DNA of 64,000 nt from a bacterium (lineage in GTDB: Bacteria; Patescibacteriota; Minisyncoccia; Portnoybacterales; UBA2143): positions 9,507 through 73,506 of the forward strand of contig JBDRFK010000010.1 of assembly GCA_043818835.1 (NCBI GenBank). The letters run 5' to 3'. A model generated the notes under the pieces. It was given only the letters and a program-made list of their open reading frames with translations. It was not told where the DNA came from and ran no database searches. Of this stretch, positions 4,065 through 62,687 are shown one piece after another. Numbering within the stretch: the stretch's first letter is position 1; each line of letters starts with the position of its first letter. The position numbers and the translations under genes were made by a program.

Positions 4065-4068
4065 ATAT

Positions 4069-4578: not shown

Positions 4579-4588
4579 CTAACTACTT

Positions 4589-5872
4589 ATGAAGTGGTAT
4601 CAAAAAGTTGTCCAAGTTTTTAAAATAAAGGATTTGCGGAAGAAGATTTTTTTCGTTTCAATAATGCTTGTTATTTTTCGTATTGTGGCGAATGTTCCTT
4701 TACCGACTATTGATACATCGCAGTTGAAACAATTTTTTGCTGGTAATCAACTATTTGGTCTTTTGAATATTTTTACAGGTGGAGCGTTAAGTAATTTATC
4801 TATTGGAATGTTGGGTATGGGTCCATATATTACCGCTGTAATTATTATGGAACTTTTAACAATGATATTTCCTGCTCTTGAAGCTCTTTATAAAGAAGAA
4901 GGTGAAGCTGGTAGACAAAAATTTAATCAATATGGGCGTTTATTAACGATTCCATTAGCGTTGTTACAGGGTTTTGCTATGTTGACCTTATTAAGTCGTC
5001 AGAATATTATCGGTCATTTGTCTATGTTTCAATGGTTTACGTCTTTGGCGCTAGTATGTGCTGGGGCTGTTTTTGTGATGTGGCTTGGCGAACTGATTTC
5101 TGAAAAAGGTATTGGTGATGGTGTTTCTATATTGATTTTGGCGGGTATTGTGGCTCATGTTCCTTTGTCTGTTAAAGAAATTGTTGTTACTTATGATCCA
5201 TCAAAGATCCCAGCATATATTGCCTTTCTTATTTTAGCATTAGTTATTACAGCAGGTGTTGTTATTATTAACGAAGGTCGTCGTAATATTCCAGTATCTT
5301 ATGCCAAACAAGTGCGTGGTAACAAAATGTATGGTGGTGTTTCAACCTATCTTCCATTAAACGTTAATCCAGCAGGTGTTATTCCAATTATCTTTGCGTT
5401 ATCAATTATGCTTTTCCCAGGGATGATAGCTAGTTTTTTAGGGACTTCAAGTATTGGATGGTTAGCAAGTTTTGCGCAATGGGTGGGTGCGCTATTCCAG
5501 AATCAGTGGTTTTATGGCAGTATTTATTTCGCCTTAGTGGTTTTATTTACATATTTTTATACAGCAGTCACGTTTGATCCAAAGAATGTGGCAGAAAACT
5601 TGCAAAAGATGGGTGGTTTTATTCCGGGGATTCGTCCAGGACAGCCAACAGTTGATTTTCTTTATCATATTTTAAATAGAGTCCTTTTGTTTGGAGCAGT
5701 ATTTTTAGGGACAATTGCAGTTTTGCCGTCTGTCGTTCAGGGCGTTACTGGCGTTCAAGCCTTTGGTTTTGTTATTGGCGGTACAGCGTTATTGATTATC
5801 GTTGCTGTAGTTTTAGATACTTTAAGACAAATAGAATCCCAGCTGACTATGCGGGATTATGAGGGGTTTTAA
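4589..5872 (+). CDS. secY: preprotein translocase subunit SecY
   Basis: 427 aa, 10 TM segments, conserved position after rplO. Confidence 0.95.
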   Translation: MKWYQKVVQVFKIKDLRKKIFFVSIMLVIFRIVANVPLPTIDTSQLKQFFAGNQLFGLLNIFTGGALSNLSIGMLGMGPYITAVIIMELLTMIFPALEALYKEEGEAGRQKFNQYGRLLTIPLALLQGFAMLTLLSRQNIIGHLSMFQWFTSLALVCAGAVFVMWLGELISEKGIGDGVSILILAGIVAHVPLSVKEIVVTYDPSKIPAYIAFLILALVITAGVVIINEGRRNIPVSYAKQVRGNKMYGGVSTYLPLNVNPAGVIPIIFALSIMLFPGMIASFLGTSSIGWLASFAQWVGALFQNQWFYGSIYFALVVLFTYFYTAVTFDPKNVAENLQKMGGFIPGIRPGQPTVDFLYHILNRVLLFGAVFLGTIAVLPSVVQGVTGVQAFGFVIGGTALLIIVAVVLDTLRQIESQLTMRDYEGF

Positions 5873-13221: not shown

Positions 13222-13265
13222 TAAAATAGAGTCCTCGTAGAGTACTCTACGAGGACTCTATTTTA
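13222..13265. repeat. 44-bp perfect palindrome (core ATAGAGTCCTCGTAGAGTACTCTACGAGGACTCTAT); second copy at 57962
   Basis: Read directly in the divergent dnaE/ligA control region. A near-identical 36-bp core recurs at 57962..57997 with one central substitution. Confidence 0.8.
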
Positions 13266-13391
13266 TAGACACCTATTGACACTCAATGTAGCGGGTGCAA
13301 ATCCCGCCGGGTCCACGTCAAAAAATCTCTGATTATTCAGGGATTTTTTGATTCTTCAAATTTTGGGTGGTTTGGGGTATAATAGTATTAA

Positions 13392-23258: not shown

Positions 23259-23366
23259 TGTCATTGCGAGCGAGGCAATCCCGTAAGATAAGTAACTATA
23301 CTACTATTTTACACATTTGCCACGAGATTGCCACGTCGCTCACTGTGTTTGCTCCTCGCAATGACA
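23259..23366. repeat. palindromic mini-element copy A (TGTCATTGCGAGCGAGG...CCTCGCAATGACA)
   Basis: 108-bp imperfect palindrome with 12-bp terminal inverted repeats, next to the tRNA cluster. Confidence 0.8.
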
Positions 23367-29862: not shown

Positions 29863-29946
29863 GTCATTGTGAGCGAGCAAAGCGAGCGTGGCAATCTCGT
29901 GTTTTACTGCGAGATTCTTCAGTCGCTTTACTTCTTCAGAATGACA
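29863..29946. repeat. palindromic mini-element copy C (TGTCATTGTGAGCGAGC...CTTCAGAATGACA)
   Basis: 84 bp filling the whole nusG-rplK spacer. Confidence 0.8.
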
Positions 29947-35396: not shown

Positions 35397-35477
35397 GTCA
35401 TTCCGAGCGAAGCGAGGAATCTCATTAAGCTGGTTATTGTACAGTATGAGATTTCTCGCTTACGGATTGAAATGACA
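35397..35477. repeat. palindromic mini-element copy D (CGTCATTCCGAGCGAAGCGAGGAATC...GAAATGACA)
   Basis: 81 bp filling the glyA-folD spacer. Confidence 0.8.
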
Positions 35478-35487: not shown

Positions 35488-36351
35488 ATGAAAATAATTG
35501 ATGGTAAAAAAATAGCAGATGAAATACTACTTGGCGTAAAAGAAAAAACCAAAGAAAAAAATCTGAAATTGGGTTTGGCTACTATTTTAATAGGCGATGA
35601 TTCTGCCTCGCATCTGTACGTATCATTAAAAGAAAAAGCAGCAAAGGAAATTGGTGTCGGTTTTAAAAAATATATTTTTTCAAATAATGTTGAAGAAAAA
35701 AGAATTATAGATTTAATTATAGAATTAAATATAGATAAGTCGGTAAATGGAATTTTAATTCAAATGCCTTTGCCAAATAATTTAGATGCGGATAAATTAA
35801 TATCTGCGATTGATTTCAAAAAAGATATAGATGGATTATCATCAAATAGCGATTTTGATTCACCATTTATTTTGGCTATTTGGGAAGCGTTGAAAAACAC
35901 AAAAGAAGATTTAAAAAATAAAAAAATATTCGCTTTAGTAAATTCTGGAATTTTTGGAGAAAAGCTCAAAGATTTTTTTAAAACTAAAAAATTGAGTTTG
36001 CGATATAGTGTTATTCCCGCTATACATCAAAGTACAGGACAGGCTTTCGCGAGAATCTGCAGTCTGGATTCCCGCTTTTCCGCCAGAGGGCGGACACGGC
36101 TTGAGAATGACATTACGAGAGAGGATGTCTTAATTACGGCATTGGGCTGTAAAAATTGCATTAAGAGTGATATGATTAAAAAAGGCGTGATTTTGATTGA
36201 CGGTGGTATTTCAAAATTTGATGAAAAAGTTGTCGGTGATGTAGACGCCAATAGCGTTACTCAAAAAGCCGGATGGCTGACACCAGTACCTGGAGGAGTA
36301 GGGCCGATAACTATAGCTATGCTTCTCAAAAACATTACTAAAGATTTATAA
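35488..36351 (+). CDS. folD: methylenetetrahydrofolate dehydrogenase/cyclohydrolase, carrying an in-frame ~30 aa insertion from a palindromic element (36030-36120)
   Basis: FolD-like overall. QSTGQAFARICSLDSRFSARGRTRLENDIT has no counterpart in FolD and is encoded by ...gattcccgcttttccgccagagggcggaca...gagaatgaca. Confidence 0.85.
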   Translation: MKIIDGKKIADEILLGVKEKTKEKNLKLGLATILIGDDSASHLYVSLKEKAAKEIGVGFKKYIFSNNVEEKRIIDLIIELNIDKSVNGILIQMPLPNNLDADKLISAIDFKKDIDGLSSNSDFDSPFILAIWEALKNTKEDLKNKKIFALVNSGIFGEKLKDFFKTKKLSLRYSVIPAIHQSTGQAFARICSLDSRFSARGRTRLENDITREDVLITALGCKNCIKSDMIKKGVILIDGGISKFDEKVVGDVDANSVTQKAGWLTPVPGGVGPITIAMLLKNITKDL

Positions 36352-36412: not shown

Positions 36413-37930
36413 ATGGAATATATACCAACAATAGGATTAGAGATTCATTCAGAATTAAAGACAAAAAGTAAAATGTTTTGTCGGTCTTTGAATAATTCAG
36501 ATGAATCAAAACCAAATACTAATGTTTGTCCTGTTTGTATGGGACATCCAGGGACTTTACCTGTGGCCAATAAGCGAGCAATTAATTTGGTTATTAAGAC
36601 TGGCTTGGCCTTGAATTGTAAGATTAATAAGTTGTCCAAGTTTGATCGCAAAAATTATTTTTATCCAGATTTACCAAAAGGGTATCAAATTTCACAGTAT
36701 GATAAGCCACTGTGTTTTGAGGGATATTTAAATATTATTTCTCCTGTTCTGCGAGATTCTTCGGTCGCTCCACTTCCTCAGAATGACAAATTGAGAAAAA
36801 TACGAATTACTCGCATTCATTTAGAAGAAGATACAGGCAAATTAACTCATCCAAAGGGAGCTGATTATTCATTGGTGGATTATAATCGGGCGGGTGTGCC
36901 ATTGATGGAATTGGTAACTGAACCAGATATTACCTCGGGTAAAGAGGCTCGCGTATTTTGCGAAGAGTTGCAACTTATTTTACGTTATTTAAATGTTTCA
37001 GATGCAAATATGGAAAAGGGACAAATGAGATGTGAAGTTAATATTTCTATGGCGCCTGAAGGAATGCGCGGAACAAAGGTGGAGATTAAAAATTTAAATT
37101 CTTTTAGGGTCGTTGAAAAATCTATTGATTATGAGATTAAAAGGCAGATAGAAATATTAAATGATAGTAAAAAAATTATTCAAGAAACAAGGGGTTGGGA
37201 TGATAATAAACAAATAACTTTTTCACAGAGAATAAAAGAAGGAGCTAAGGATTATCGTTATTTTCCAGATCCTGATTTACCGACTTTAAGCATTAGTCAG
37301 GATGAAATAGATAATCTTAAAAGAGATATTACAGAATTACCACAATCACGACGTGAAAGATTTTTACAAGAATACAAAATACCCGAACAAGATATCAAAG
37401 TTTTGGTATCTAATAAATATTTGGCTAACTTTTTTGAACAGGCTGTTTCAGAATTAAAAACTTGGTTGAAAATAAAGAAGGTTGATATTTTGCCAACTGA
37501 CGGACAATCATTAATCAAGTTAACTGCTAATTACATTTTGACCGAATTGCAAAAATTATTATTAGTTTCAAAAAAAGGAATGGATGATTGTCGTGTTAGT
37601 CCAGAAAATTTTGCTGAGTTTATTACCTTAATAAAACAGGGAGAAATCTCTAGTTCTGCTGCGCAAGCTGTTTTAAAAGAAATGTTTGAAACGGGAGCTG
37701 ACCCATCACATATTATTGAAGAAAAAGGATTAAAACAAGTTAGTGATCAAGGAGCATTAGAAACAATTGTTGATCAAGTTATAAAAGACAATCCAGATTC
37801 TGTTAAAGATTTTAAGTCGGGGAAAGAAAATGCTTTACAGTTTTTAATTGGTAGAACCATGGCTGTTAGTAAGGGACAGGCTAATCCTCAGGTGGTTGGC
37901 GAGATTTTAAGAAAGAAATTGACTGACTAA
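36413..37930 (+). CDS. gatB: Asp/Glu-tRNA amidotransferase subunit B, carrying an in-frame half-element at 36745-36788
   Basis: GatB N-terminus (IGLEIHSELKTKSKMFC) and RIHLEEDTGK motif. Inserted segment ctgcgagattcttcggtcgctccacttcctcagaatgaca is near-identical to the right half of copy C. Confidence 0.9.
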   Translation: MEYIPTIGLEIHSELKTKSKMFCRSLNNSDESKPNTNVCPVCMGHPGTLPVANKRAINLVIKTGLALNCKINKLSKFDRKNYFYPDLPKGYQISQYDKPLCFEGYLNIISPVLRDSSVAPLPQNDKLRKIRITRIHLEEDTGKLTHPKGADYSLVDYNRAGVPLMELVTEPDITSGKEARVFCEELQLILRYLNVSDANMEKGQMRCEVNISMAPEGMRGTKVEIKNLNSFRVVEKSIDYEIKRQIEILNDSKKIIQETRGWDDNKQITFSQRIKEGAKDYRYFPDPDLPTLSISQDEIDNLKRDITELPQSRRERFLQEYKIPEQDIKVLVSNKYLANFFEQAVSELKTWLKIKKVDILPTDGQSLIKLTANYILTELQKLLLVSKKGMDDCRVSPENFAEFITLIKQGEISSSAAQAVLKEMFETGADPSHIIEEKGLKQVSDQGALETIVDQVIKDNPDSVKDFKSGKENALQFLIGRTMAVSKGQANPQVVGEILRKKLTD

Positions 37931-43613: not shown

Positions 43614-43621
43614 TTTTTTTA

Positions 43622-43691
43622 TGTCATTTCCGCGAAAGCAGGATCCAGCGATAATCAATAATCTCTGGATTCCCAATCAAGTTGGGAATGA
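43622..43691. repeat. palindromic mini-element copy H (TGTCATTTCCGCGAAAGC...TTCCCAATCAAGTTGGGAATGATA)
   Basis: 70 bp filling the tpiA-pgk spacer. Confidence 0.7.
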
Positions 43692-44853: not shown

Positions 44854-46623
44854 ATGAAATGGCGATTAAAGTCGAAAGCTCCAGAGGACTTTATTAAACG
44901 GTTTCCAGAGTATTCGTCTTTGATAATTCAATTACTATATGATAGAGGAATAGAAACTCAGCAACAAATTGATGAGTTTTTTAATTGTAATTATAAGACA
45001 GATATTCATGACCCTTTTTTACTAAAGGATATGGATATTGCAGTAGGTTCTGTTTTAAAAGCAATTAAAAATAATGAGCGTATTGTTATTTTTGGTGACT
45101 ATGATGCTGATGGCGTATGTTCTTCGGCTATTTTGTATCTTACTCTTAAGAAGATAGGGGCTGATAACATTAATGTTTACATTCCAGACAGAGGAAAGGA
45201 GGGACATGGCTTGAATCAGATGGCGGTTGAGAAAATTATCAACGAAGGCGCTAAATTAATTATTACTGTTGATTGTGGTAGTAGGGATATAGAAATGGTT
45301 GACTTGATAAACTCTCTTGGAGCGGAAATTATTATAACCGATCATCATGAAGTGGGTGACAAATTACCTAAGGCGATAGCAATGATAAATTTTCACCGAA
45401 AAGATGATAAGTATCCTTTCAAAAATTTAGCTGGGGCTGGTGTGGCGTATAAATTGGCTTGTGCTTTATTATCTTCTGAATTAGCTAAAAATAGAAAGGT
45501 AGAAAATCTCAAGAAATGGCTTTTAGATTTGACAGCTATTGCGACTGTGGCAGATGTTATGCCGATTATTGGTGAAAATCGCACACTGTTGATTTATGGT
45601 CTTGGTGTTTTAGCGCAGACAAAATGGATTGGATTGCAAGAATTGATGAATGTTTCTAAATTACAACCAAAAATAAGCAAACAATCGGTTAATGGTGAAG
45701 CGCCAATAACTAATTTAGATTCTTTCACAATTGGTTTTGTATTGGGCCCGCGATTGAACTCGGCGGGACGTATGGATCATGCAAATGTGGCTTTTAATTT
45801 ACTAACAACAGAAGATAGAAACGAAGCAATAGAATTGGCCCAACAACTTACAGATAAAAATATTGAACGGCAGAAAATGACTGATAAAATTGTTATGGAA
45901 GTTGTGAAAAGATTGGAAAAAGATTTTGACAAACCAGATAAACCAAAAATAATTTTTGAAGGTAGTCCAGATTGGTCGGTAGGATTAGTCGGTTTAGTTG
46001 CTGGTAAAATCGCCAATAAATATTGTCGTCCAACATTTATTTATCAGGACAAGGGTAATGCTATTCATGTTTCTGGAAGAAGTATTCCGCAATTTAACTT
46101 GATAGAATCCATCAATGAATGCGCAGATTTGTGTGTGCAATATGGCGGGCATAGAGGAGCGGCTGGGTTTGTGGCGAAACAGGACAAAATAGATGAAATT
46201 AAAGAAAGAATAAATAATTTTGCTGATCCACAAATTAATGAAAATGAATCAATATCAATAATAGATATTGATTCGGAATTATTTTTTGATGATGTGGGTT
46301 GGTCAAGTTATAATCAACTTCAACGTTTTGCTCCATTCGGAAATGCGAATACGGAACCTAAATTTTTAATTAAAAATGTAGAGGTGGTAAATGCGCGGAC
46401 AGTTGGTAGCGATGATAAACATCTTAAAATGGATATAAAATTATGGAATAATGATCGTAAATTAGCAAAGAATTTGAAGGCAATTGGTTTTGGCTTAGGC
46501 GAATGGGCTAATAATCTACAGACAGGCAATATTGTTAACTTGGTTTTTGAATTTACAGTTAATGAATGGAATAATTATCGCGATTTAGAACTTAGAATTA
46601 TTGATTTAAAAGTTGCTACTTAA
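44854..46623 (+). CDS. recJ: single-stranded-DNA-specific exonuclease RecJ (DHH/DHHA1)
   Basis: DYDADGV, ITDHH, DHHA1 GGH..AAG and a C-terminal OB domain. Confidence 0.85.
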   Translation: MKWRLKSKAPEDFIKRFPEYSSLIIQLLYDRGIETQQQIDEFFNCNYKTDIHDPFLLKDMDIAVGSVLKAIKNNERIVIFGDYDADGVCSSAILYLTLKKIGADNINVYIPDRGKEGHGLNQMAVEKIINEGAKLIITVDCGSRDIEMVDLINSLGAEIIITDHHEVGDKLPKAIAMINFHRKDDKYPFKNLAGAGVAYKLACALLSSELAKNRKVENLKKWLLDLTAIATVADVMPIIGENRTLLIYGLGVLAQTKWIGLQELMNVSKLQPKISKQSVNGEAPITNLDSFTIGFVLGPRLNSAGRMDHANVAFNLLTTEDRNEAIELAQQLTDKNIERQKMTDKIVMEVVKRLEKDFDKPDKPKIIFEGSPDWSVGLVGLVAGKIANKYCRPTFIYQDKGNAIHVSGRSIPQFNLIESINECADLCVQYGGHRGAAGFVAKQDKIDEIKERINNFADPQINENESISIIDIDSELFFDDVGWSSYNQLQRFAPFGNANTEPKFLIKNVEVVNARTVGSDDKHLKMDIKLWNNDRKLAKNLKAIGFGLGEWANNLQTGNIVNLVFEFTVNEWNNYRDLELRIIDLKVAT

Positions 46624-46650
46624 ATGATTTTTATTGTATAATATATAACA

Positions 46651-47088
46651 ATGAAAATAACTATAAATACAGATGGTGGCGCGCGCAAGAATCCTGGGCC
46701 AGCAGCGGTTGGTGTTGTTATCGCTAATGAGAATAGCGAAATTATTAAGAAATACGGCCAAGCTATTGGTAAGGCGACAAACAACGAAGCTGAATATCAG
46801 GCAGTTATTATAGCTCTTCAAAAAGCTAAACTTCTTTTTGGCAAGGAAAAATCAAAACAAATAGATGTGGAAATTAGGTTGGATAGCGAGTTGGTCGCAA
46901 AACAAATCAATCACGAATATAAATTAAAAGAAGAGCATATTCAAAAATTATTTATCATGGTATGGAATTTAATGATGGATTTTAATTCTGTAGTTTTTCA
47001 TCATATACCAAGGGAAAGAAATAAAGAAGCTGACAAATTAGTGAACGAAGCATTAGACAATCAAAATAAAAATGTAAGTTTGTTCTAA
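46651..47088 (+). CDS. rnhA: ribonuclease H I
   Basis: INTDGGARKNPGPAAVG...TNNEAEYQA has the RNase H catalytic DEDD pattern. Confidence 0.8.
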   Translation: MKITINTDGGARKNPGPAAVGVVIANENSEIIKKYGQAIGKATNNEAEYQAVIIALQKAKLLFGKEKSKQIDVEIRLDSELVAKQINHEYKLKEEHIQKLFIMVWNLMMDFNSVVFHHIPRERNKEADKLVNEALDNQNKNVSLF

Positions 47089-47092
47089 ATTT

Positions 47093-47121
47093 AAAAACCA
47101 ACTTTATACAAGTTGGTTTTT
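47093..47121. terminator. bidirectional intrinsic terminator (rnhA on +, rnpB on -)
   Basis: aaaaaccaact-ttataca-agttggttttt. Confidence 0.75.
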
Positions 47122-47139
47122 AAATTGTAATCATCTCAT

Positions 47140-47667
47140 AGTTCTTAGTAAATTAGTAAGCCGAATTCTGTTATACTATTTTGTCATTATCCGGTTTGAC
47201 TGGATAATCTAGAAATAATATAGATGATCATCTATCTGGGATTGATATTACTATCAACCTCTAGCGAGCTACTTGTCTTACCCCACAATAGTGGGATAGT
47301 TTGCTCTTGCACCGGGCAGGGTTTGTCACGCTATTACGTTTCCGTAAAGCGAGAAGGGTCTTAATCCTTCACTTTTCATCCTTACCAAGTTTATGTCATT
47401 CTGAACGGAGCGAAGCGGAGTGAAGAATCTCGTAGAACTTGCCACGGGATTCTTCGGGCTTTGCCCTCAGAATGACGACTGGGCGGTTTTGTTTCTGTGA
47501 CACTTTCCCTAGACTTTGCTTTAAACAATTTGTCTCGAGAACAAATTACTTAAAACTACTTCCGACGGATGTTATCCGTTGCCCTTTTTTTATGGTGTTC
47601 GGACTTTCCTCCCCGCACCACTTTTTTTGAAAAGTAGTGGAGGCAATCATCTTATTTACTAAGAACT
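47140..47667 (-). ncRNA. rnpB: RNase P RNA (bacterial type A) carrying a palindromic mini-element at the P12 position
   Basis: Minus strand shows P1 pairing (AGUUCUUAGUAAAU/AUUUACUAAGAACU), P3 hairpin, GGGGAGGAAAGUCCGAACACCAUA...GGGCA (P4 5' strand), CACAGAAACAAAACCGCC, GGUAAGGAUGAAAAGUGAAGG, CCCGGUGCAAGAGCAAACUAUCC and ACAGAAUUCGGCUUAC (P4 3' strand). All match conserved M1 RNA blocks in order. Confidence 0.8.
47394..47476. repeat. palindromic mini-element copy I, located inside rnpB between the ACCGCC and GGUAAGG blocks (P12)
   Basis: TGTCATTCTGAACGGAGCGAAGCGGAGTGAAGAATCTCG...GGGATTCTTCGGGCTTTGCCCTCAGAATGACG. Confidence 0.8.
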
Positions 47668-47742
47668 AATTAAATTATATTACATATATTATTTTTGTCA
47701 AGTCATTGACCACGTAGTCTCAAATGAGTAATATGGCAGTAT

Positions 47743-49170
47743 ATGAAGAAGCCGGAACTTACTTTTACGGCGGCGTTGGTGCCATTAGATTTTATAATGT
47801 TGTTGGGGGCCGGTTTGGCCTCTTATTTTTTACGAACTAGTATATGGGTAGAGCAATATCGTCCAGTGCTTTTTTATTTGGATTTACCTTTCAGTCGTTA
47901 TCTTATTTTAAATATTGGGTTTGCGTTATTTTTGTTAGTGGTTTTTGCTTTTGTTGGACTTTATAAGATAAAACCCATAAGATCGATTGTAGATGATTTT
48001 TTTAAAATTGTTATTGGTGTTTCGGCTGGGGTTTTTGTTTTAGTATTTTATATATTCTTACGTCGAGAATGGTTTAATTCTCGTTTTTTAATTTTATCTG
48101 GGTGGATAGCGGCTATTTTTTTAGTTACGTTTGGTCGTTTTTTGATGATTTGTTTTAAGAAATTTTTATTTAAAAAACATAAAATTAGAATCCAACCAGT
48201 TTTGGTAATAGGCGATGATAATATTAGTAGAAAGATAATTGATATTTTACAAAACAACTTAGGCTTGGGATATAAATTAGTGGCTAATTTGACAGAGCCG
48301 GATTTATACGAAATTAAAGCCAAAGTAAACGATCATGGTGTTGAAGAGATAATATTAGCTGATCTTAATTGGTCTAAAGAAAAAATTTTAGAGTTAGTTA
48401 GTTTTTGCGAAGAAAATCATATTATTTTTAAATTTGTGCCTAATTTATTTCAAACATTGACTATTAATAGTTTGGCAACAACATTAGGAACAGTGCCTTT
48501 GATAGAGATTAAACGGGCGGCGTTAGATGGCTGGGGAAGAATTATTAAACGACTTATTGATATTATTGGCGCTATATTTGCGATTATTATTTTTATGCCG
48601 ATTATGATGGTAATTGCTTTTGCAGTAAAATGGGAATCGTTCGGTCCAATTATTTATAAAGATTATCGCTATGGTTATAAACAGAAGAAGTTTGTTTTTT
48701 ATAAATTCAGATCTATGCGATCAGATCTATGTGATGGCGAATTTGGCACTGGTGCTGGTAATGAGATGCTTAAAAAATTAGAACAAGATCAAGTCAAGAA
48801 TATACGCGGTGGTAGTCCTTTGCACAAAATTAAAAATGACCCGAGATTAACCAAGGTGGGTAATTTTATTAGAAAAACATCGTTAGATGAGTTGCCACAA
48901 TTTTTTAGCGTTTTAATAGGTGATATGAGTTTAGTTGGCTATCGTCCGCATATGTCTTACGAAGTAGAAAAATATAATTATGAACAGCGCAAAATGTTTT
49001 GTACTAAACCAGGTATTACTGGATTGGCGCAAATTTCTGGTAGAAGCGATTTGGATTTTGATGAAGAAGTTAAATTGGATTTATACTATATTGAAAATTG
49101 GTCGTTCTGGTTGGATATAATTATTATGATAAAAACTCCGTTTGTTGCTTTATTCAAGACGCATCAATAA
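47743..49170 (+). CDS. polyprenyl-phosphate sugar phosphotransferase (bacterial sugar transferase, WbaP-like)
   Basis: N-terminal TM domain; C-terminal RPHMSYEVEKY...DELPQFFSVLIGDMSLVG...PGITGLAQ. Confidence 0.85.
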   Translation: MKKPELTFTAALVPLDFIMLLGAGLASYFLRTSIWVEQYRPVLFYLDLPFSRYLILNIGFALFLLVVFAFVGLYKIKPIRSIVDDFFKIVIGVSAGVFVLVFYIFLRREWFNSRFLILSGWIAAIFLVTFGRFLMICFKKFLFKKHKIRIQPVLVIGDDNISRKIIDILQNNLGLGYKLVANLTEPDLYEIKAKVNDHGVEEIILADLNWSKEKILELVSFCEENHIIFKFVPNLFQTLTINSLATTLGTVPLIEIKRAALDGWGRIIKRLIDIIGAIFAIIIFMPIMMVIAFAVKWESFGPIIYKDYRYGYKQKKFVFYKFRSMRSDLCDGEFGTGAGNEMLKKLEQDQVKNIRGGSPLHKIKNDPRLTKVGNFIRKTSLDELPQFFSVLIGDMSLVGYRPHMSYEVEKYNYEQRKMFCTKPGITGLAQISGRSDLDFDEEVKLDLYYIENWSFWLDIIIMIKTPFVALFKTHQ

Positions 49171-49174
49171 AAAT

Positions 49175-50263
49175 ATGAAAGTTGCTTTGGTTCACGATTA
49201 TTTAACTCAATATGGAGGGGCAGAAAGAGTGCTGGATGTTTTTTGTGAAATATTTCCAGAAGCGCCAATTTATACTTTGCTTTGCGATAAAAAGAAAACA
49301 GGGTTAATCTTTGAATCTAAAAAAATTTATACTTCTTTTTTGCAAAAAATTCCTTTTATTAAAAATCATCACAGATCTTTTTTAATGTTGATGCCGTTTG
49401 CGGTGGAGCAGTTTGATTTGTCGCAATATGATTTGGTGGTTTCTGATTCAGCCAGTTATGCCAAGGGGGCGATAACATCTCCAAACACAAAACATATTTG
49501 TTATTGTCATACGCCAATTCGTTATGCATGGGATGATTCGCAAAAATATATTAACGAGTTTGGATATTCAAAATTGAGTCAAAAATTTATTCCTTTTTTT
49601 ATGAACTATATTCGCATTTGGGACGAACAGGCAGCGGAAAGAGTTGATAAGTTTATCGCTAATTCAGACTTTGTTGCCGATAGAATTTTAAAATATTATC
49701 ATCAAGAATCAGAAGTTATTTATCCGCCAATAAAAACAGATTTATTTTATATCGCTGATAAGATAGAAAATTATTTTTTAATGGTTGGACGGCTGTTGCC
49801 TTATAAGAAATTTGATTTAGCGATTGAAGTTTTTAATAAATTAGGATTGCCATTGAAAATTGTTGGTGATGGTCCTGAGCGAAAATATCTACAGAAAATA
49901 GCTAAGAAAAATATTGAATTTGTTGGTTTAGTTTCAGATAACAAATTAAGAGATTATTATGCGCATTGCCAAGCCTTTATCTTTCCGCAAGAAGAAGATT
50001 TCGGTATTACGGCGATAGAAGCAATGGCATCTGGACGACCAGTAATCGCTTATAAAGCAGGCGGGGCTTTAGAATTTATCAAAGAAAATATTACAGGTAT
50101 GTTTTTTGAAAAACAGGAAGAAGATTGTTTAATAGAAACGATTAAAAGATTTGATGTTCATAATTTTAATCCACAGTTTATTCGCGCAGAAGCAAAGAAA
50201 TTTGATAAAGAAATCTTTAAAAGCAGAATTAAAGAATTTATTGATAGGGAGTATAATAATTAA
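49175..50263 (+). CDS. family 4 glycosyltransferase
   Basis: EDFGITAIEAMASGRPVIA (EX7E region). Start taken at MKVALVHDY. Confidence 0.8.
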   Translation: MKVALVHDYLTQYGGAERVLDVFCEIFPEAPIYTLLCDKKKTGLIFESKKIYTSFLQKIPFIKNHHRSFLMLMPFAVEQFDLSQYDLVVSDSASYAKGAITSPNTKHICYCHTPIRYAWDDSQKYINEFGYSKLSQKFIPFFMNYIRIWDEQAAERVDKFIANSDFVADRILKYYHQESEVIYPPIKTDLFYIADKIENYFLMVGRLLPYKKFDLAIEVFNKLGLPLKIVGDGPERKYLQKIAKKNIEFVGLVSDNKLRDYYAHCQAFIFPQEEDFGITAIEAMASGRPVIAYKAGGALEFIKENITGMFFEKQEEDCLIETIKRFDVHNFNPQFIRAEAKKFDKEIFKSRIKEFIDREYNN

Positions 50264-50281
50264 AGCCCCTTTATTGGGGCT
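50264..50281. terminator. hairpin agcccc-tttatt-ggggct between convergent genes
   Basis: Read directly; serves either strand. Confidence 0.45.
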
Positions 50282-50301
50282 CTAAGTTAGCAAGGTTTAT
50301 T

Positions 50302-50541
50302 TTATTTATTAAAATAATTATTTAATAATTTTTTTGCCAATTCAGTAGGCATAACAACATATTTAGTAGACGTAAATTTGCTTATCTTTTCTATTGCTAT
50401 TGGCAATCTGTTTTCTACACTGACATCGTTAGCATTAGATATAGTTTCTTTGACATCGAATAGTATTCCGGTAACGGTACAGGCGTCTATTTCTTGTTTA
50501 TCGTTGCGTATTTCTTTGTCTGTTATAATTAATATACTCAT
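50302..50541 (-). CDS. hypothetical small protein (79 aa)
   Basis: ORF only; no motif recognised. Confidence 0.35.
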   Translation of the reverse strand: MSILIITDKEIRNDKQEIDACTVTGILFDVKETISNANDVSVENRLPIAIEKISKFTSTKYVVMPTELAKKLLNNYFNK

Positions 50542-50649
50542 TAGATAATTCTCCTTTTTATATAAATTAATATTAAGAGCAAATTCTATTTATTATATAA
50601 TACAAATAAAATAATAGATTGTCAAGTTGTTATTAAAGGAAATAAATAA

Positions 50650-51789
50650 ATGACGATTGGAATAGATATCAGAGTTTTAGCCAAGGGGACAAGAACGGGG
50701 GTAGAGGAATATACGATAAATCTTTTATCTCATCTTTTGCCTTTAGATAAAACTGTAAAATACAAATTATTTTATAATGCTTTTCATAAACCAATCTTAG
50801 ATTACGATTGGTTAAATTTGGATAATGTGGAATTATGCAATTTTATAATTCCTAATCGCGCTTTCTTTGGAATGACACGATATTTAAATCAACCTAAGGT
50901 TGATAAATTATTGAAGGGTGTTGATGTATATTTCAATCCACATTTTTTTAATGCGCCAGTTTCAAAAGAATGTCGCAAGGTGGTAACTTTTCATGATTTG
51001 TCTTTCAAACGTTATCAATACTATTTTTCAAAAAGAAAAAGATTATGGCAAATTTTTTTAATGAATGCTAAACGCGAAGCACAGACGGCTGATAAAATTA
51101 TTGCTGTTTCAGAATCAACTAAAAATGATTTAGTAAATCTATGTAAAATTAATTCAGATAAGATACAAGTAATTTATTCAGGAGTTGGTTTACAAAGGTT
51201 AGGTCTTTGTAAAAATAAAGGCTTAACCTTTGTAAAAAATAAATATAATTTGCCTGATGATTATGTTTTATACTTTGGCACCATTGAACCTCGTAAAAAT
51301 ATTATCGGCTTGATAAGGGCTTTTGAATTATTAAAAACCAAATATAATTTTCCAAATCTTAAATTGGTTTTAGCGGGATCAATGGGGTGGCTTTATGGTG
51401 ATGTTATTAGAACAGCAAAAAAATCAACATATAGTCAAGATATTTTTTTTACTGGTTTTGTTGAGGAAACAGATAAACCATATTTATATAAATTAGCTGA
51501 TTTATTTGTTTATCCGAGCTTTTTTGAAGGTTTTGGTTTTCCGCCATTGGAAGCAATGGCTTGTGGCGCGCCGGTAATTACATCAAATAATTCTTCTTTG
51601 CCCGAAGTTGTGGGTGATGCCGCTTTGATGGTAGATGCTTATAGATATGGCGATATGGCGTGGGGAATGAATGAGATTTTAACTAACCAACAGATTTATG
51701 ACAGAATGATTAAAAAGGGCTTTGAACAGGTAAAAAAGTTTTCGTGGAAAAGGTGCGCCGAGAAAACATTAAAAACTTTATGCGAATAG
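50650..51789 (+). CDS. family 4 glycosyltransferase
   Basis: [23 protein letters not shown]. Confidence 0.8.
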
Positions 51790-52979
51790 GAATTGATGCT
51801 CGATTTTACGGGCCTAAAAAACAAAAAGGACTTGGTCGTTATCTACAGGAATTAATTACCGAGTTAGAAAAAATAGATACAAATAATGAGTTTGTTATTT
51901 TTTTGCGTTGTGAAAATTGGAACGACTATCAACCAATAAACAATAATTTCAGAAAAGTTTTGGCAGATTATCGTTGGTACACTTTTGCCGAACAAATTAT
52001 GATGCCGATTAAAATTTGGCGAGAGGATATAGATTTAATGCATTTTCCTCATTTTAACATTCCGATTTTTTGCCCAACTAAATTTGTAGTTACAATTCAT
52101 GACTTGATTTTAAAACATTTTCCAACACGACGCGCTTCAACGCTTGGGCCGATAATGTATAGGATTAAAAACTGGGGATATGAGATTACAATTTGGTTGG
52201 CGGTCAGGAGGTCGCAAAAAATCATTGCTGTTTCAGAATTTACCAAACGAGATATTTTGAATAACTTTAATGTTGCTGATAACAAAATTAAAGTTATTTA
52301 TGAGGGGGTGTTATCTCCTGTCATTCCCACTCCCTTTGTCATTCCCGCTAAAGCGGGAATCCAGAATGTAGATTTACGCTTTTCCGCCAAAGGGCGGACA
52401 TGGCGCGGGAATGACAAAGAAGAAGGTAGGAGTAACGAAATATACTTGCTTTATGTAGGCAATGCATATCCTCACAAAAATTTAGAAAGATTGATTTTGT
52501 CGTTTGATAAATTATCAGGTGATTATCCTGATTTAAAATTAGTTTTAGTTGGCGAATTAGATTATTTTTACAAACGGCTTCAGGAATATGTTTCAGGTTT
52601 TAATCCTAAGACCACAAATAATATAATTTTTACTGATCTCGTGTCGGACAATGAATTAAATAATTTATACAAAAATGCTTCTTTATATGTTTTTCCTTCA
52701 GAATACGAAGGGTTTGGGTTACCGCCCTTAGAGGCGATGTCTTGTGGCTTGCCAGTAGTTTCTTCTAATGCCAGTTGTTTGCCAGAAATTTTAGGTAATT
52801 CGGCAATTTATTTTAATCCGGTCAGTGTTGATGATATGGTCGACAAAATTAAAAAAGTTTTTAATAATAGAGCTATAAGAAAGGATTTAATCGAGAAAGG
52901 ATATCAGCAAATTAAAAAATATAATTGGCAGAAAATGACAAAAGCAATAAGGAGGATCTATGCCGAAGAGAAGATATGA
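51780..52979 (+). CDS. family 4 glycosyltransferase with in-frame palindromic-element insertion (52319-52415)
   Basis: [24 protein letters not shown]. Inserted [33 protein letters not shown] is encoded by tgtcattccc...cgcttttccgccaaagggcggaca...gggaatgaca. Confidence 0.8.
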
Positions 52980-56366: not shown

Positions 56367-57965
56367 ATGATAAAAAAACTTCTTAATAATAAAATAAGCA
56401 CTATTACTATGGCCGCTGTCGTTTTGGGAGCGGCTTCTTTTTTGAGTCGTCTTATTGGTCTTTTTAGAGATAGAATTCTATTGAATATGTTTGGTACGGG
56501 TAGAGAGTTGGATATATATTATGCCGCTTTTCGTATTCCAGATTTTGTTTACGCTTTTTTTATCTTAGGTGTTATCTCGGCAGGCTTTGTTCCTGTGTTC
56601 ATTCATTATCTTCAAAAAGATAAAGAAAAATCGTGGTATTTGGCTAATAATATTTTGAATCTAATTGCTATTGTTTTAATAGTGGTTTGTTTAGTTTTAG
56701 TATTTTTTGTTCCTTATATTGTTCACTTGGTGGCACCCGGGTTTGAAAAAGAGAGCGCAGATATGACAATCAAATTGGCTCGGATTATGTTTTTAAGTCC
56801 GATATTTTTAGGCATCAGCGCTGTTTTCAGTGGGATTTTACAAAGCTTCCGTCGGTTTCTTATATATTCATTAGCGCCGATTATGTATAATTTGGGAATA
56901 ATTTTTGGCGCATTATTTTTGGTAAAATATTTTGGTTTAATTGGTTTGGCTTACGGCGTCGTTCTGGGTGCTTTTTGTCATATGATGATTCAAATTCCGA
57001 CAGCAATTTTTTGTGGGTATAAATGGCGTCCAATATTAAACTTAAAATTTGATGGATTGAAAAGAGTATTAAAGTTAATGCCACCACGGTTTTTGAGTTT
57101 GATTTTTTATCAAATTACTTTCTGGGTTTTTACGGCTATTGCGTCGTTATTGGCAGTGGGGAGCATAGTAATTTATAATACGGCTTATAATATTTTTAGT
57201 TTTCCATTAGGTATATTTGCCTTATCTTATGCAGTGGCGGCTTTTCCGAAATTGTCGGAAAGCGCACAAAAAAAAGATAAGCGAGAATATGTTCGGACTT
57301 TTTCGGCTACCGCACGACAAATATTGTTCTTTATTATTCCAGTTGCGGTTTTGTTTATTATCTTAAGATTACAAATAATTCAGGTGCTATTTTCTGGAGG
57401 TAAGTTTAGTTGGCAAGATACAATGCTGATTGGACAGACTTTGATGTATTTTTGTATTGGTCTTTTTGCAGAAGGTTTGGCTTTGTTTCTGTTGCGTGGG
57501 TTTTTTGCATGGGAAGACACAATAACGCCCTTTGTATTGGCGTTTATTACTATGGTAATTCGTATAGCCAGTGGTTGGTATCTGACCAGATTTTTTGGGG
57601 TTGCTGGTTTGTCTTTAGGATTTGCTATTGGTAGTATTTGTTTTTTTGTGTTGCTTTTAATTTGTTTAAGAAAAAAGGTGGGATTATTGGATGGTAAAAA
57701 TATTTTTAATTCAGCAATTAGAATTGCTATTGCAACATTATTTGCGGGTGGCGTGTCATATTTTATATTAAATCTTTTGACTATAAAAATTCCGGCTATT
57801 GTTCCAATAATGATGCTTTTGAAAGGTGGTATCGCAGGCATTTTAGGTGTTATTATCTATTTTGTTTTTGCTTGGATTTTAAAAATTCCAGAATTTTATT
57901 TATTTGTTTCCTCTTTATCAAGAAAATTGTCTATAAAAAAACTTCCGCCACGACAGGAGATATAG
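56367..57965 (+). CDS. murJ: lipid II flippase MurJ
   Basis: 532 aa, 14 TM helices; N-terminus ASFLSRLIGLFRDRILLNMFGTG...YYAAFRIPDF is typical of MviN/MurJ. Confidence 0.9.
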   Translation: MIKKLLNNKISTITMAAVVLGAASFLSRLIGLFRDRILLNMFGTGRELDIYYAAFRIPDFVYAFFILGVISAGFVPVFIHYLQKDKEKSWYLANNILNLIAIVLIVVCLVLVFFVPYIVHLVAPGFEKESADMTIKLARIMFLSPIFLGISAVFSGILQSFRRFLIYSLAPIMYNLGIIFGALFLVKYFGLIGLAYGVVLGAFCHMMIQIPTAIFCGYKWRPILNLKFDGLKRVLKLMPPRFLSLIFYQITFWVFTAIASLLAVGSIVIYNTAYNIFSFPLGIFALSYAVAAFPKLSESAQKKDKREYVRTFSATARQILFFIIPVAVLFIILRLQIIQVLFSGGKFSWQDTMLIGQTLMYFCIGLFAEGLALFLLRGFFAWEDTITPFVLAFITMVIRIASGWYLTRFFGVAGLSLGFAIGSICFFVLLLICLRKKVGLLDGKNIFNSAIRIAIATLFAGGVSYFILNLLTIKIPAIVPIMMLLKGGIAGILGVIIYFVFAWILKIPEFYLFVSSLSRKLSIKKLPPRQEI

Positions 57966-57997
57966 AGTCCTCGTAGAGTACTCCACGAGGACTCTAT
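57962..57997. repeat. 36-bp palindrome ATAGAGTCCTCGTAGAGTACTCCACGAGGACTCTAT (second copy of the element at 13226)
   Basis: Differs from the 13226 copy by a single central T/C. Overlaps the murJ stop codon. Confidence 0.8.
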
Positions 57998-58053
57998 TAT
58001 GCATAGACTAATTATGCCATCTACGCTATTATTTCGAGAAAGAATTTTTACTA

Positions 58054-58152
58054 TGTCATCCTGAGGCAGTAGCCGAAGGATCTCGTGGGAAAAACATAAT
58101 CGTTGTTTGTCTACGGGATTGCCGAGATCCCTACTGGTCACTCGCAATGACA
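58054..58152. repeat. palindromic mini-element copy J (TGTCATCCTGAGGCAG...CACTCGCAATGACA)
   Basis: 99 bp; internal gggattgccgagatccc is shared with copy A. Confidence 0.8.
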
Positions 58153-58234
58153 GAAGAAAGAGAGTTTTTTGGTTCACGTTGTGTGATTTAATTTATAACG
58201 AAATCGCCGCGGGCTTTGCCCGCGGCGAGATGTT

Positions 58235-59050: not shown

Positions 59051-60865
59051 ATGAAAAATATTAGGAATTTTTGTATCATTTCTCATATTGATCACGGGAA
59101 GTCAACTTTGGCTGACCGGCTTTTGGAATTGACTGGGACTGTTGAGAAGAGAAAAATGCAAAATCAAGTTTTGGATATGATGGATTTGGAAAGAGAGAAG
59201 GGGATTACGATTAAACTACAGCCAGCAAGGATGGAGTATCAACTGCCACGTCATTCTGAGGGAGCGAAGCGACCGAAGAATCTTGCGCTTATTCGGCGGG
59301 ATTCTTCACTTTTAGCTCAGAATGACGGACAACAGGATGACAAATTCATTCTCAATTTAATTGATACACCGGGTCATGTTGATTTTACTTACGAAGTTTC
59401 AAGAAGTTTAGCAGCGGTGGAGGGCGCTGTTTTATTGGTGGATGCAACACAAGGAATACAGGCGCAGACATTGGCAAATCTGCATTTAGCGCAGAAGCAG
59501 GGTTTGGTGATTATTCCTGTGATCAACAAAATTGACGCGCCTGCGGCGCGCCCAGATGATATTGCTTTAGAAGTTGCGCAATTATTGGATATTGAACCAG
59601 ACGGGATTATTAGAATATCAGCAAAAAATGGAATAAATATAGAACAAGTTGTTGAGGCAATAGTTGAAAAAATTCCAGCGCCAGAAGGTGATGAGAATCA
59701 ACCATTGCAAGCCCTAATTTTTGATTCTAATTATGATTCTTATCAAGGTGTCATTGCTCATGTTCGTATTAAAAACGGGCAAGTAAAAAAAGACCAGAAA
59801 ATTTTTATGAAAGCGTCGCAGGCTACTTCTGGTATTATTGGCATAGGAATTTTTAAACCACGACCTCAAGAGAAAGAAAATTTAACAGCGGGTGAGATTG
59901 GATATATTGCCACAGGATTAAAGGACATCAATATTTGTCGGGTGGGTGATACGATTACTTTGAATAATAATATAAAAGCATTGTCTGGATATCAAGAATC
60001 AAAACCGATGGTCTATGCTAGTTTTTTTCCTATTGATGGTGATGATTTTGATTTGTTGCATGATGCTTTAGGTAAACTGAAAATGAATGATGCGTCTTTG
60101 GATTTTGAATTAGAATCTTCTGATGCTTTGGGGCGTGGTTTTCGTTGTGGATTTTTAGGCTTGTTACATTTAGAAATTATCGGCGAGCGACTACGTCGTG
60201 AATATGATTTAAATTTAGTTATAACAGCGCCTTCGGTATATTATCGTTATACTGATAAATCTAAAACAGGTATGGAAGAGCCGTGGGTAAAATTGGAAGT
60301 TGTTTCTTCTAATGAATATTTAGGAGCAGTAATGAAATTATTAACAGAAGCGGAAGGAGAATATGTTAATACGGAATATTTAAATCCAGAAAAAGTATTA
60401 CTGACCTATAAAGCGCCATTGCGCGAAATTATGACTGATTTTTATGATAAATTAAAAAGCGCTACATCGGGCTATGCTTCTTTAGCTTATCAATTAGACA
60501 ATTATCGTGAAGCAGATTTGGTTAAGCTGGATATTGTAGTGGCTGGGGAAAAGGTAGAAGCTTTTTCCAGATTTGTGGCGCGCAATAAATCTTATCGTGA
60601 AGCAAAATTATTAGTCGAAAAACTAAAAGATTTAATTCCTTCTCATCAATTCAGTATTCCAATTCAAGGTATGGTGGGCAGTAAGGTGATTGCTCGTGAG
60701 ACAATTAAAGCGTTTAGAAAAGATGTTATTGCTGGTCTTTATGGTGGTGACTATACACGCAAAAGAAAACAATTAGAAAAGCAGAAAAAAGGTAAGAAAC
60801 GATTAAAACAATTCGGCAAAGTTTCTATTCCGCAAGAAGTATTTTTAAAGGCTTTAAAAAAATAA
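59051..60865 (+). CDS. lepA: elongation factor 4 (LepA) with a 26-codon in-frame palindromic-element insertion (59249-59326) in the G domain
   Basis: MKNIRNFCIISHIDHGKST, DTPGHVDF and the LepA C-terminal domain. PRHSEGAKRPKNLALIRRDSSLLAQND lies between G1 and G3 and has no counterpart in E. coli LepA. Confidence 0.9.
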   Translation: MKNIRNFCIISHIDHGKSTLADRLLELTGTVEKRKMQNQVLDMMDLEREKGITIKLQPARMEYQLPRHSEGAKRPKNLALIRRDSSLLAQNDGQQDDKFILNLIDTPGHVDFTYEVSRSLAAVEGAVLLVDATQGIQAQTLANLHLAQKQGLVIIPVINKIDAPAARPDDIALEVAQLLDIEPDGIIRISAKNGINIEQVVEAIVEKIPAPEGDENQPLQALIFDSNYDSYQGVIAHVRIKNGQVKKDQKIFMKASQATSGIIGIGIFKPRPQEKENLTAGEIGYIATGLKDINICRVGDTITLNNNIKALSGYQESKPMVYASFFPIDGDDFDLLHDALGKLKMNDASLDFELESSDALGRGFRCGFLGLLHLEIIGERLRREYDLNLVITAPSVYYRYTDKSKTGMEEPWVKLEVVSSNEYLGAVMKLLTEAEGEYVNTEYLNPEKVLLTYKAPLREIMTDFYDKLKSATSGYASLAYQLDNYREADLVKLDIVVAGEKVEAFSRFVARNKSYREAKLLVEKLKDLIPSHQFSIPIQGMVGSKVIARETIKAFRKDVIAGLYGGDYTRKRKQLEKQKKGKKRLKQFGKVSIPQEVFLKALKK

Positions 60866-61727: not shown

Positions 61728-61798
61728 GCGAGTGTAGTATAGTGGCAGTATGCGACCTTCCCAAGGTTGAGACGAGGGTTCGATTCCCTTCACTCGCT
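61728..61798 (+). tRNA. tRNA-Gly (CCC)
   Basis: GCGAGUG acceptor; anticodon loop UUCCCAA; T-loop GGUUCGAUUCC. Confidence 0.8.
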
Positions 61799-61806
61799 CT
61801 AGGACT

Positions 61807-61878
61807 GCCAACATAGCTCAGGGGTAGAGCAACTCTTTCGTAAAGAGTAGGTCGGGGGTTCAAATCCCTCTGTTGGCT
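61807..61878 (+). tRNA. tRNA-Thr (CGT)
   Basis: GCCAACAUAGCUCAGGGGUAGAGC; anticodon loop UUCGUAA; T-loop GGUUCAAAUCC. Confidence 0.8.
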
Positions 61879-61922: not shown

Positions 61923-62687
61923 ATGAAAGAATTAAAAAACAAATTAATTGGAAAATACGATAAGAATAAAGCTATTGTGTCTATTTATGCTGGAGCGGGT
62001 GGGGCAGATGCGCAGGACTGGGCGGAAATATTGTTGAGGATGTATCTTAGGTATGCTCAAAAAAATAACTGGTCAGCCAAGGTATTGCAAATTAAAGAGG
62101 GTAAAGAGGCGGGGATAAAAAATGTGACCTTGTCTATCAATGAGCCATACACTTATGGATATTTGAAAGGTGAGACAGGTGTGCATCGTTTGGTAAGAAT
62201 TTCTCCATTCAGTTCTGCTAAGTTACGTCATACTTCTTTTGCGATGGTTGATATTTTACCAGAACTTGGAGATATGGGGGAAATAAAAATAGATCCACAA
62301 GATTTAAGAGTTGATACCTATAGGGCCAGTGGTCCGGGTGGGCAGTATGTTAATAAGACAGAATCGGCAGTAAGAATTACACATTTTCCAACGGGCGTTG
62401 TTGTTGCTTGTCAAAGTGAGCGTTTGCAGGGAGAAAATAAGAAACAAGCAATGAAATTGCTTTATGCTAAATTGCATCAACTTTTATTAAAAAGTAAAGA
62501 GAAAGAGATTAGTAAATTGAAAGGCGATGCTGTGTCAATTGAATGGGGGAATCAAATTCGTTCTTATGTTCTACATCCTTATCAGATGATCAAAGACCAT
62601 CGTACAGGCGTAAAAAGTTCCAGTCCTGATAAGGTATTAGATGGTGATTTAGATAAGTTTATTGAAGCAGAAATTAAAAATATTTAA
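61923..62687 (+). CDS. prfB: peptide chain release factor 2-type protein (SPF and GGQ motifs) lacking the ~110 aa N-terminal domain 1
   Basis: RISPFSS (SPF), RASGPGGQYVNKTESAVRI (GGQ). The ORF starts 45 nt after tRNA-Thr, so no upstream coding room and no frameshift site. Confidence 0.75.
   Translation: MKELKNKLIGKYDKNKAIVSIYAGAGGADAQDWAEILLRMYLRYAQKNNWSAKVLQIKEGKEAGIKNVTLSINEPYTYGYLKGETGVHRLVRISPFSSAKLRHTSFAMVDILPELGDMGEIKIDPQDLRVDTYRASGPGGQYVNKTESAVRITHFPTGVVVACQSERLQGENKKQAMKLLYAKLHQLLLKSKEKEISKLKGDAVSIEWGNQIRSYVLHPYQMIKDHRTGVKSSSPDKVLDGDLDKFIEAEIKNI

Follow-up and report, generated by a model that had tools for sequence, protein, structure and literature searches.

A probable insertion of a dispersed hairpin repeat into the P12 loop of a Patescibacteria RNase P RNA

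Introduction

How does an essential ribozyme gene come to carry, within one of its helices, a copy of a palindromic repeat that is scattered through the surrounding DNA? The question is raised by rnpB, which encodes RNase P RNA, in a 64,000-nucleotide stretch (here called the window) from a bacterium of the Patescibacteriota, order Portnoybacterales, within the Candidate Phyla Radiation (CPR) (contig JBDRFK010000010.1 of assembly GCA_043818835.1, positions 9,507 to 73,506 of the forward strand). A preliminary description of the window reported that a palindromic mini-element of 83 nt occupies helix P12 of this RNA, and regarded it as a mobile element co-opted into the ribozyme. No nucleotide of P12 is conserved universally, and the helix can at times be dispensed with (PMC2858038); the RNase P RNAs of CPR bacteria show large helix extensions, missing helices and, in some, even loss of P12 (Lui et al. 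2021, PMC8172020). Our analysis makes it likely that rnpB in the window is a functional, single-locus gene in which a hairpin repeat resembling the Rickettsia palindromic elements (RPEs) was inserted into the apical loop of a very short P12, where it is passively tolerated.

The rnpB gene and its promoter

A cmscan search of the whole window against Rfam returned a single RNase P match, to RF00010 (RNaseP_bact_a) on the minus strand at 47662..47141, scoring 195 bits where the gathering score is 100 (E 1.4e-61) and spanning model positions 1-367 of 367 without truncation, which upholds the gene and strand first proposed. Pairing of P1 takes the 5′ end to 47667, in agreement with the end proposed earlier, and the conserved regions GGAGGAAAGUCCG..., ACAGAAA..ACCGCC, GGUAAGG.UGAAA and ACAGAAnnCGGCUUA are all present, in the order the preliminary description had listed. 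All pairs of P4 are canonical (alignment columns 57-65 with 541-548), and the class A-specific helices P13, P14 and P18 are aligned and paired in the covariance-model (CM) alignment and show compensatory changes across relatives. Every membership feature that can be read from its sequence places the gene in class A, with an RNA that is presumably catalytic on pre-tRNA. Upstream lies a sigma-70-type promoter with 12/12 consensus matches, which is a match to consensus and not proof of use.

47141..47667, minus strand: rnpB, class A bacterial RNase P RNA, ~527 nt with P1 counted in full, identified by RF00010 and synteny
47674..47701, minus strand: sigma-70-type promoter TTGACA-16-TATAAT, ending 7 nt upstream of the P1 5′ end

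An open reading frame (ORF) at 47439..47630, flagged at the outset as spurious and overlying rnpB, does exist; it encodes 63 aa from a TTG start.

An 83-nt hairpin in the loop of a retained mini-P12

In the CM alignment, P12 is the helix that follows ACAGAAAcaaAACCGCC / ACAGAAACAAAACCGCC and precedes GGUAAGGAUGAAA / GGUAAGGAUGAAAAG; the corresponding segment of E. coli M1 RNA is likewise P12. The model opens the P12 hairpin loop at this point and places a long insert inside it, between two native strands.

47477..47486, minus strand: native 5′ strand of the P12 base (CCGCCCAGUC), from the cmscan alignment and the minimum free energy (MFE) structure; it aligns with the P12 5′ strand of the closest relative, locus L122
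47394..47476, minus strand: 83-nt palindromic hairpin element, a CM insert in the P12 apical loop and the top match of the element profile
47380..47393, minus strand: native 3′ strand of the P12 base and start of conserved region CR-III (UAAACUUGGUAAGG), from the cmscan alignment and the MFE structure

Around the element the base of a mini-P12 is kept, pairing as CC/GG, then GCC/GGU, then AGU/ACU, within the sequence ACC-GCCCAGU-C[83 nt]AUAA-ACUUGGU-AAGG. The earlier statement that the element occupies P12 was therefore right as to the location, but the element does not replace the helix: it sits in the loop of a P12 that is still there. With the RF00010 match significant and the element in P12, neither P4 nor the catalytic core is the site of the insert. 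When the element was deleted in silico, GCCCAGU-loop-ACUUGG refolded as a mini-hairpin of a size similar to that of L122; the junction of such an empty site would read ...CCCAGUC joined to AUAAACUUGG....

Folding of the element-bearing P12 region gives -41.9 kcal/mol (z = -6.15). A partition-function calculation on the complete 527-nt RNA assigns the element 30.8 expected internal pairs and 0.02 to the remaining molecule, while shuffled inserts in its place gave 13.0 +/- 5.8 cross-pairs with a minimum of 2.75. Removing the element leaves the MFE structure at the 444 non-element positions unchanged, and these calculations predict that it is structurally insulated from the ribozyme fold. The insert has no match among Rfam families at E <= 1 when searched alone, a 29-mer taken from it has no second exact occurrence in the window, and Tandem Repeats Finder, which would detect a tandem array, gave only a weak 2.5-copy 10-mer with a score of 34.

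A repeat family dispersed through the window

Several hairpins with termini like those of the insert came out of repeat searches and folding. The window contains 6 matches to the terminal signature GTCATT-N60-90-AATGAC where 0.17 would be expected, and 0/100 shuffles reach this count. A profile built from the window copies detects 7 full copies and 1 half copy in the 64 kb, with the copy in rnpB as its top-scoring match (E 9.7e-16), so that the insert is indeed, as first described, a copy of the palindromic element. Copies are 77-107 bp long, all hairpin-forming, and present at ~1 per 8 kb. Their shared design begins with (T)GTCATT and SYGAG, followed by a variable GC-rich arm, often with GCGAAGC; an inner stem (GAATCYCG, loop, CGRGATTC), a second arm and CTCRS-AATGAC(A) complete it. 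The terminal inverted repeats (T)GTCATT...AATGAC(A) extend to 10-11 bp. Besides the rnpB copy, the members in the window are as follows, with strand not given for any of them.

23260..23366: copy a, intergenic, adjoining a tRNA cluster; profile E 6e-11, hairpin fold
29863..29946: copy b, filling the spacer between NusG and L11; profile E 3.3e-14
35397..35476: copy c, filling the spacer between SHMT and FolD; profile E 8.9e-12
36011..36112: copy d, diverged, in-frame in folD; assigned to repeat family D3, which also contains copy g
36746..36788: half element e, in-frame in gatB; profile E 5.4e-5
52338..52416: copy g, in-frame in a GT4 glycosyltransferase, at its inter-domain linker; profile E 2.4e-7
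58054..58153: copy j, intergenic, downstream of murJ; profile E 4.5e-11
59250..59326: copy k, in-frame in lepA (EF4 G domain); profile E 7.7e-15

Comparison with orthologous proteins or, for LepA, with a solved structure reveals extra residues at each of the in-frame sites. FolD has ~26 more residues at copy d than the ortholog of locus L124, GatB has a clean 17-aa insertion at half element e that is absent from two orthologs, the glycosyltransferase has additional linker residues at copy g relative to two orthologs, and residues 72-101 of LepA stand in place of 2 residues of T. thermophilus EF4. Across the four genes the in-frame copies add ~14-28 residues at loops or linkers, and the peptides that they encode include VIPAKAGIQ...RGNDK and RHSEGAKRPKNL...AQND.

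No direct repeat that could be a target-site duplication flanks any of 8 copies, and no transposase or recombinase family was found among the window ORFs scanned with Pfam, a set that left out about ten probable ribosomal-protein ORFs at 223-5872. Complementarity between the flanks of the 8 copies, examined as a test of hairpin-loop targeting, was marginally above random (P about 0.05). In ~1.05 Mb of other CPR loci the profile detects a single copy at E <= 0.01, in L124, with a weaker match in L122 at a laxer threshold only, which argues that the family has expanded in this genome. The spacer between TIM and PGK holds weak copies of the family in both relatives (L124 8706-8771, L122 6241-6347) and is empty in the window (43614-43681).

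Another repeat in the window, unrelated to the element, is a nearly perfect palindrome of 36 nt (ATAGAGTCCTCGTAGAGTACTCTACGAGGACTCTAT) found at two intergenic sites, 13226-13277 and 57962-58013, the latter adjoining element copy j.

Relatives carry rnpB at the same locus without the element

The nearest homologs of the RecJ protein encoded in the window are ~61% identical and come from organisms named Patescibacteria or Parcubacteria group, or Candidatus Portnoybacteria. On the contigs around eight RecJ homologs, the gene order TIM, PGK, RecJ, RNase H, gap, sugar transferase, GT4 glycosyltransferases is conserved. We looked for rnpB where the relatives' contig continues past RNase H, and Rfam placed it in the gap between RNase H and the sugar transferase in 10/10 loci scanned (358-414 nt, 178-234 bits); all ten syntenic genes are without the element. 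In an alignment of nine rnpB genes, L122 is the closest to the window, and the two have in common a P9 extension of 44-50 nt, the P4 variant CCGAAC/GAATTCGG and an inverted gene orientation. The P12 of L122 is a mini-hairpin of ~17-19 nt (ACC-GCCCGCC-UUA-GGCGGGU-AAGG), located exactly at the insertion point.

A wider sample came from a metagenome scan with the sub-clade CR-II variant GGGAAAGTGYCACAGAAACAAAACC, which yielded 120 loci (L140-L259). The segment from CR-II to CR-III, which contains P12, measures 8-63 nt (mode 11-13) in the ~107 loci where it could be measured, none of which has a GTCATT element there; at 98 nt, that of the window is the longest. The literature on bacterial and CPR RNase P RNAs (PMC2858038, PMC8172020) agrees with the view taken in the preliminary description that P12 is dispensable and variable in length. 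A metagenome scan with a strict pattern, the terminus GTCATTSYGAR at 6-36 nt after CR-II, matched no rnpB, which argues that the insertion event is rare. A genome-collection scan with GGAGGAAAGTCCGAACNCCATA, a pattern that proved too general, gave matches in many phyla, with no close relative among the matches listed. In rnpB genes sharing the CR-II variant, P12 is usually a hairpin of 3-5 bp, so that a mini-P12 is widespread.

The window gene is longer than those of the relatives (522-527 nt against 358-414 nt) because it contains two further expansions in addition to the element.

47515..47558, minus strand: 44-nt P9 extension, with 44 inserted nt where the model has 3
47172..47222, minus strand: additional hairpin at the P19 site, lying between the P2 and P4 3′ strands, a 35-nt CM insert

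The P9 extension is not a copy of the element, and a homologous extension (44-50 nt) was found among the relatives in L122 only. The hairpin at the P19 site (10-bp + 7-bp, -12.6 kcal/mol, an expansion of ~35-50 nt) has counterparts in position, as other hairpins, in L122, L135 and L138. We considered whether this hairpin, which ends in ...GGAUAAUGACA, is a degraded half element; the idea is unsupported, as the element profile gave no match at E <= 10 with filters off and a search space of just two rnpB sequences.

Several further observations concern the rnpB genes of the relatives. The gene lies on the strand opposite to its flanking genes in the window (47141-47667) and in L122 (10574-10987), and is co-directional with them in the other eight; the set compared was the window and L122 versus L124, L127, L128, L130, L132-L135 and L138. 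This arrangement looks like a gene-sized inversion in a common ancestor of the window and L122. In L135 (also L136 and L137), rnpB contains two near-identical GC-rich hairpins (CCCGCCTTYGCGCTWCGCGCTACGGCG) at 8336-8372 and 8607-8645, one at J5/7 in a P5.1-like position and one at the P19 site, where L138 has a similar hairpin. In the DNA covered they do not form a dispersed family, since they occur only inside that rnpB and the 13.7-kb locus has no further copy. In rnpB of L124, L127, L130 and L134 a small additional hairpin (alignment columns 70-104) lies between P5 and P7, at the same place as P5.1 of class B RNase P RNAs; in L127 its sequence (CCGCAATACTGCGG) is almost a repeat of that RNA's own P3 hairpin.

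Insertion, tolerance and the alternatives

On the account with the best support, a non-autonomous, non-coding double-hairpin repeat with GTCATT...AATGAC termini would have landed in the loop of a minimal P12. The gene would be transcribed from its own sigma-70 promoter with the element included, and the 83 inserted nt would pair with themselves to form an irregular hairpin of ~31 bp stacked on the retained base of P12, leaving the J11/12 and J12/13 modules, P4 and the catalytic core untouched. Because P12 has a peripheral tip that varies in length and is even dispensable in some lineages, such an insertion would be tolerated as a passive expansion segment. Passive tolerance is what the evidence fits, and we do not retain the word "co-opted" used in the preliminary description.

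Several points weigh against this account. We infer, rather than observe, that the insert is retained in the mature RNA, that the ribozyme is active, and the way in which the element moves. The window covers only 64 kb of the genome, so that a second rnpB or a protein-only RNase P may lie elsewhere. In class A structures the L13 loop docks on P12, and either the mini-P12 or its extension may affect this contact. Finally, no same-species allele with an empty site was found, and the insertion is deduced from a relative with a RecJ that is ~60% identical.

An alternative, which we regard as unlikely, is that the long hairpin is cut by a double-strand-specific nuclease such as RNase III, leaving a naturally split ribozyme of two pieces held together by tertiary structure. 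The helix of the element is nearly continuous and, at ~31 bp, a plausible RNase III substrate; fragmented rRNAs and bimolecular reconstitutions of RNase P RNA are functional, and Correia hairpins in Neisseria mRNAs are cleaved by RNase III. Yet the hairpin is interrupted by several internal loops and mismatches, and no RNase III gene was seen within the 64-kb window.

A more sweeping account would make the element a frequent visitor of exposed RNA and protein loops and a source of CPR expansion segments, with the P9 and P19 hairpins as its older, degraded products and the P12 hairpin perhaps cut; we give it only a slim chance. Were such an active mobile element at work, the P12 copy would be one of these events caught early.

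That the insertion inactivated this copy, leaving RNase P to be supplied by a second rnpB or a protein-only enzyme, seems very improbable, even though the 64 kb covered leave room for such loci elsewhere in the genome. A pseudogene would be hard to reconcile with the intact conserved regions and helices. RNAalifold on the nine rnpB genes gave 92 consensus pairs, 38 with compensatory changes, and the window shares with L122 a double GC-to-AU compensatory switch in distal P4. Outside the P12 columns, which were left out because they cannot be aligned across the insert, non-canonical pairs number 5 in the window and 5 in L122, so that there is no excess of broken pairs. A perfect promoter, an orthologous syntenic locus and the predicted structural insulation of the insert argue in the same direction.

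One could instead take the 83 nt for a native expansion of P12 that is specific to the lineage, with a likeness to the repeat that is due to chance or to the repeat having arisen from it; this idea is largely refuted, and we attach almost no weight to it. In its favour, P12 varies in length, and the hairpins at P9 and the P19 site are themselves lineage-specific without being element copies. However, the profile match to the rnpB copy involves the common termini, the inner stem and the arm motifs, and the 83-nt element is absent from rnpB of all relatives. The same architecture also recurs far from this lineage. A Calothrix plasmid (AP025020.1; L260 ~263-347) carries a full element, its 3′ arm sharing 92% identity with the rnpB copy across 49 nt, and the Sphingopyxis plasmid pMC4 (L261 ~303-381) carries one inside an intact ileS coding sequence. 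A further 12 viral contigs from IMG/VR (L264-L275; 40-58% GC) have the architecture, with both termini intact in 10/12, and one of them, L273, holds an array of at least 5 copies at 4211-5040. Two N. gonorrhoeae records (H4, H5) each give 10-11 matches to the ATTCCCGC...GCGGGAAT arm. Judged by these sequences, the architecture is cosmopolitan and crosses phyla, a recurrence that may reflect common descent, horizontal spread or convergence.

Nor is a repeat-induced mis-join that set an element copy between two sequences at all credible, for although short-read contigs do break inside the element, its flanks are the two halves of one rnpB in the correct order and orientation, and Logan contigs from runs SRR27458547 and SRR27458548 enter the element from both sides with an overlap of 30-32 nt. 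Two of these contigs match the window at 100% identity (44956-47429 and 46472-47431) and a third at 99.97% (47400-51117); their reach into the element is 36-38 nt on one flank and 77 nt on the other. Since contigs from two runs cover them, both junctions between element and rnpB are seen outside the metagenome-assembled genome (MAG). All three contigs (L001, L262, L263) stop inside the element, at window positions 47400, 47429 and 47431, as a repeat would lead one to expect. By breaking short-read assemblies inside rnpB and creating spurious ORFs, the element can make the gene look absent in MAG completeness checks. Among the relatives, the contigs of L125, L126 and L139 break off directly past the RNase H gene, immediately ahead of rnpB; repeats within or close to rnpB may be a reason for MAGs to miss it.

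Relation to known repeats and RNA insertions

The element family has a parallel in the behaviour of the RPEs, interspersed palindromic repeats of ~100-150 bp found between genes and in-frame within protein genes (PMC1458961, PMC1779305). R. bellii has 53 RPEs within protein genes and one within the gene for tmRNA (PMC1458961). The tmRNA case is a precedent, which makes the rnpB insertion less unusual than the preliminary description had rated it. Like the RPEs, the window family has intergenic copies, four in-frame copies (FolD, GatB, GT4, LepA) and one in a structural RNA gene; unlike them, it resides in Patescibacteria, its copies are shorter (77-107 bp) and the RNA gene is rnpB, not tmRNA. 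The likeness described is one of layout and behaviour, with or without sequence homology to RPE-1 to RPE-8 behind it, and none of the element searches matched a Rickettsia plasmid. With terminal inverted repeats, small size and no coding capacity, the element also resembles a miniature inverted-repeat transposable element (MITE), but without the target-site duplication. We file it under neither heading, because the host is not a Rickettsia and neither a target duplication nor, among the window ORFs scanned, a parent transposase was found.

Its arms recall the repeats of Neisseria. The dRS3 element is a 20-bp inverted repeat, ATTCCC-N8-GGGAAT (PMC1797815), and the arms of the window element look like sub-hairpins of that kind. 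An exact fit to the consensus is seen for the 5′ arm of copy g (ATTCCCGCTAAAGCGGGAAT), which matches N. gonorrhoeae at 10-11 places in each record; the rnpB copy instead has ATTCT-N15-AGAAT, a relaxed form. The cluster of at least 5 copies on viral contig L273 is similarly reminiscent of Neisseria intergenic mosaic element (NIME) arrays. In contrast to dRS3, NIME and Correia repeats, the window elements consist of two arms with GTCATT/AATGAC termini, are dispersed and have no linked recombinase among the ORFs scanned.

Within rnpB itself, the closest case is that of the STRRs, repetitive sequences made of short tandem repeats. Their presence within cyanobacterial rnpB is stated in the title of a paper listed as ref. 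108 in PMC2858038, and the passage of PMC2858038 that cites this paper gives P12 as dispensable in cyanobacteria. Both cases have a genome-wide repeat inside rnpB that is tolerated there, in ours within the P12 loop; the STRRs, however, are tandem heptanucleotide arrays of cyanobacteria, whereas the insert here is one palindromic element of a dispersed family, in a CPR host. The STRRs reportedly lengthen helix P12. Bacterial 23S rRNA offers a structural analogue in its intervening sequences, which are extra hairpins at the tips of peripheral helices, compatible with function, that are excised by RNase III to leave a fragmented rRNA; the window element is likewise an extra hairpin at the tip of a peripheral helix in an essential structural RNA. 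A literature search of incomplete coverage turned up no description of rnpB carrying a MITE or palindromic element.

The rnpB insert is, in our view, a well-documented new case of a known type of tolerated insertion, and that P12 tolerates it will be no great surprise to a specialist, though the case is a remarkably clean one. Its interest is as a dated example in which the helix of an essential ribozyme would have been extended by insertion of a dispersed hairpin repeat and not by gradual growth. It bears in this way on the unexplained helix extensions of CPR RNase P RNAs (PMC8172020), which are from the same host group and include extended helices; none of the extensions reported there was traced to a dispersed repeat, whereas here the origin of one is identified. 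The locus is also a natural test of the amount of additional structure that the P12 tip can bear, in a lineage whose P12 is otherwise down to a few base pairs, and it extends colonisation of the RPE kind, in-frame in housekeeping proteins and in a structural RNA gene, beyond Rickettsia to a CPR bacterium.

Other features of the window

Between rnpB and the convergent RNase H gene lies an AT-rich hairpin, read from the sequence and a possible bidirectional terminator, which is not among the terminators listed by a consensus terminator scan.

47092..47121, strand not given: AT-rich hairpin AAAAACCAACU-UGUAUAA-AGUUGGUUUUU

Two protein genes in the window depart from their expected form. NAD-dependent DNA ligase (LigA) is split over two overlapping ORFs in different frames, 13392-13745 and 13676-15424, the first covering domain Ia at the N terminus and the beginning of the adenylation domain, the second the remainder; a frameshift, an error in sequencing or a pseudogene may lie behind the split. 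Just downstream of tRNAs at 61728-61878, a peptide-chain release factor ORF (61923-62687) matches PCRF only from profile position 85, and the missing N-terminal part possibly points to a programmed frameshift as in prfB, or to truncation.

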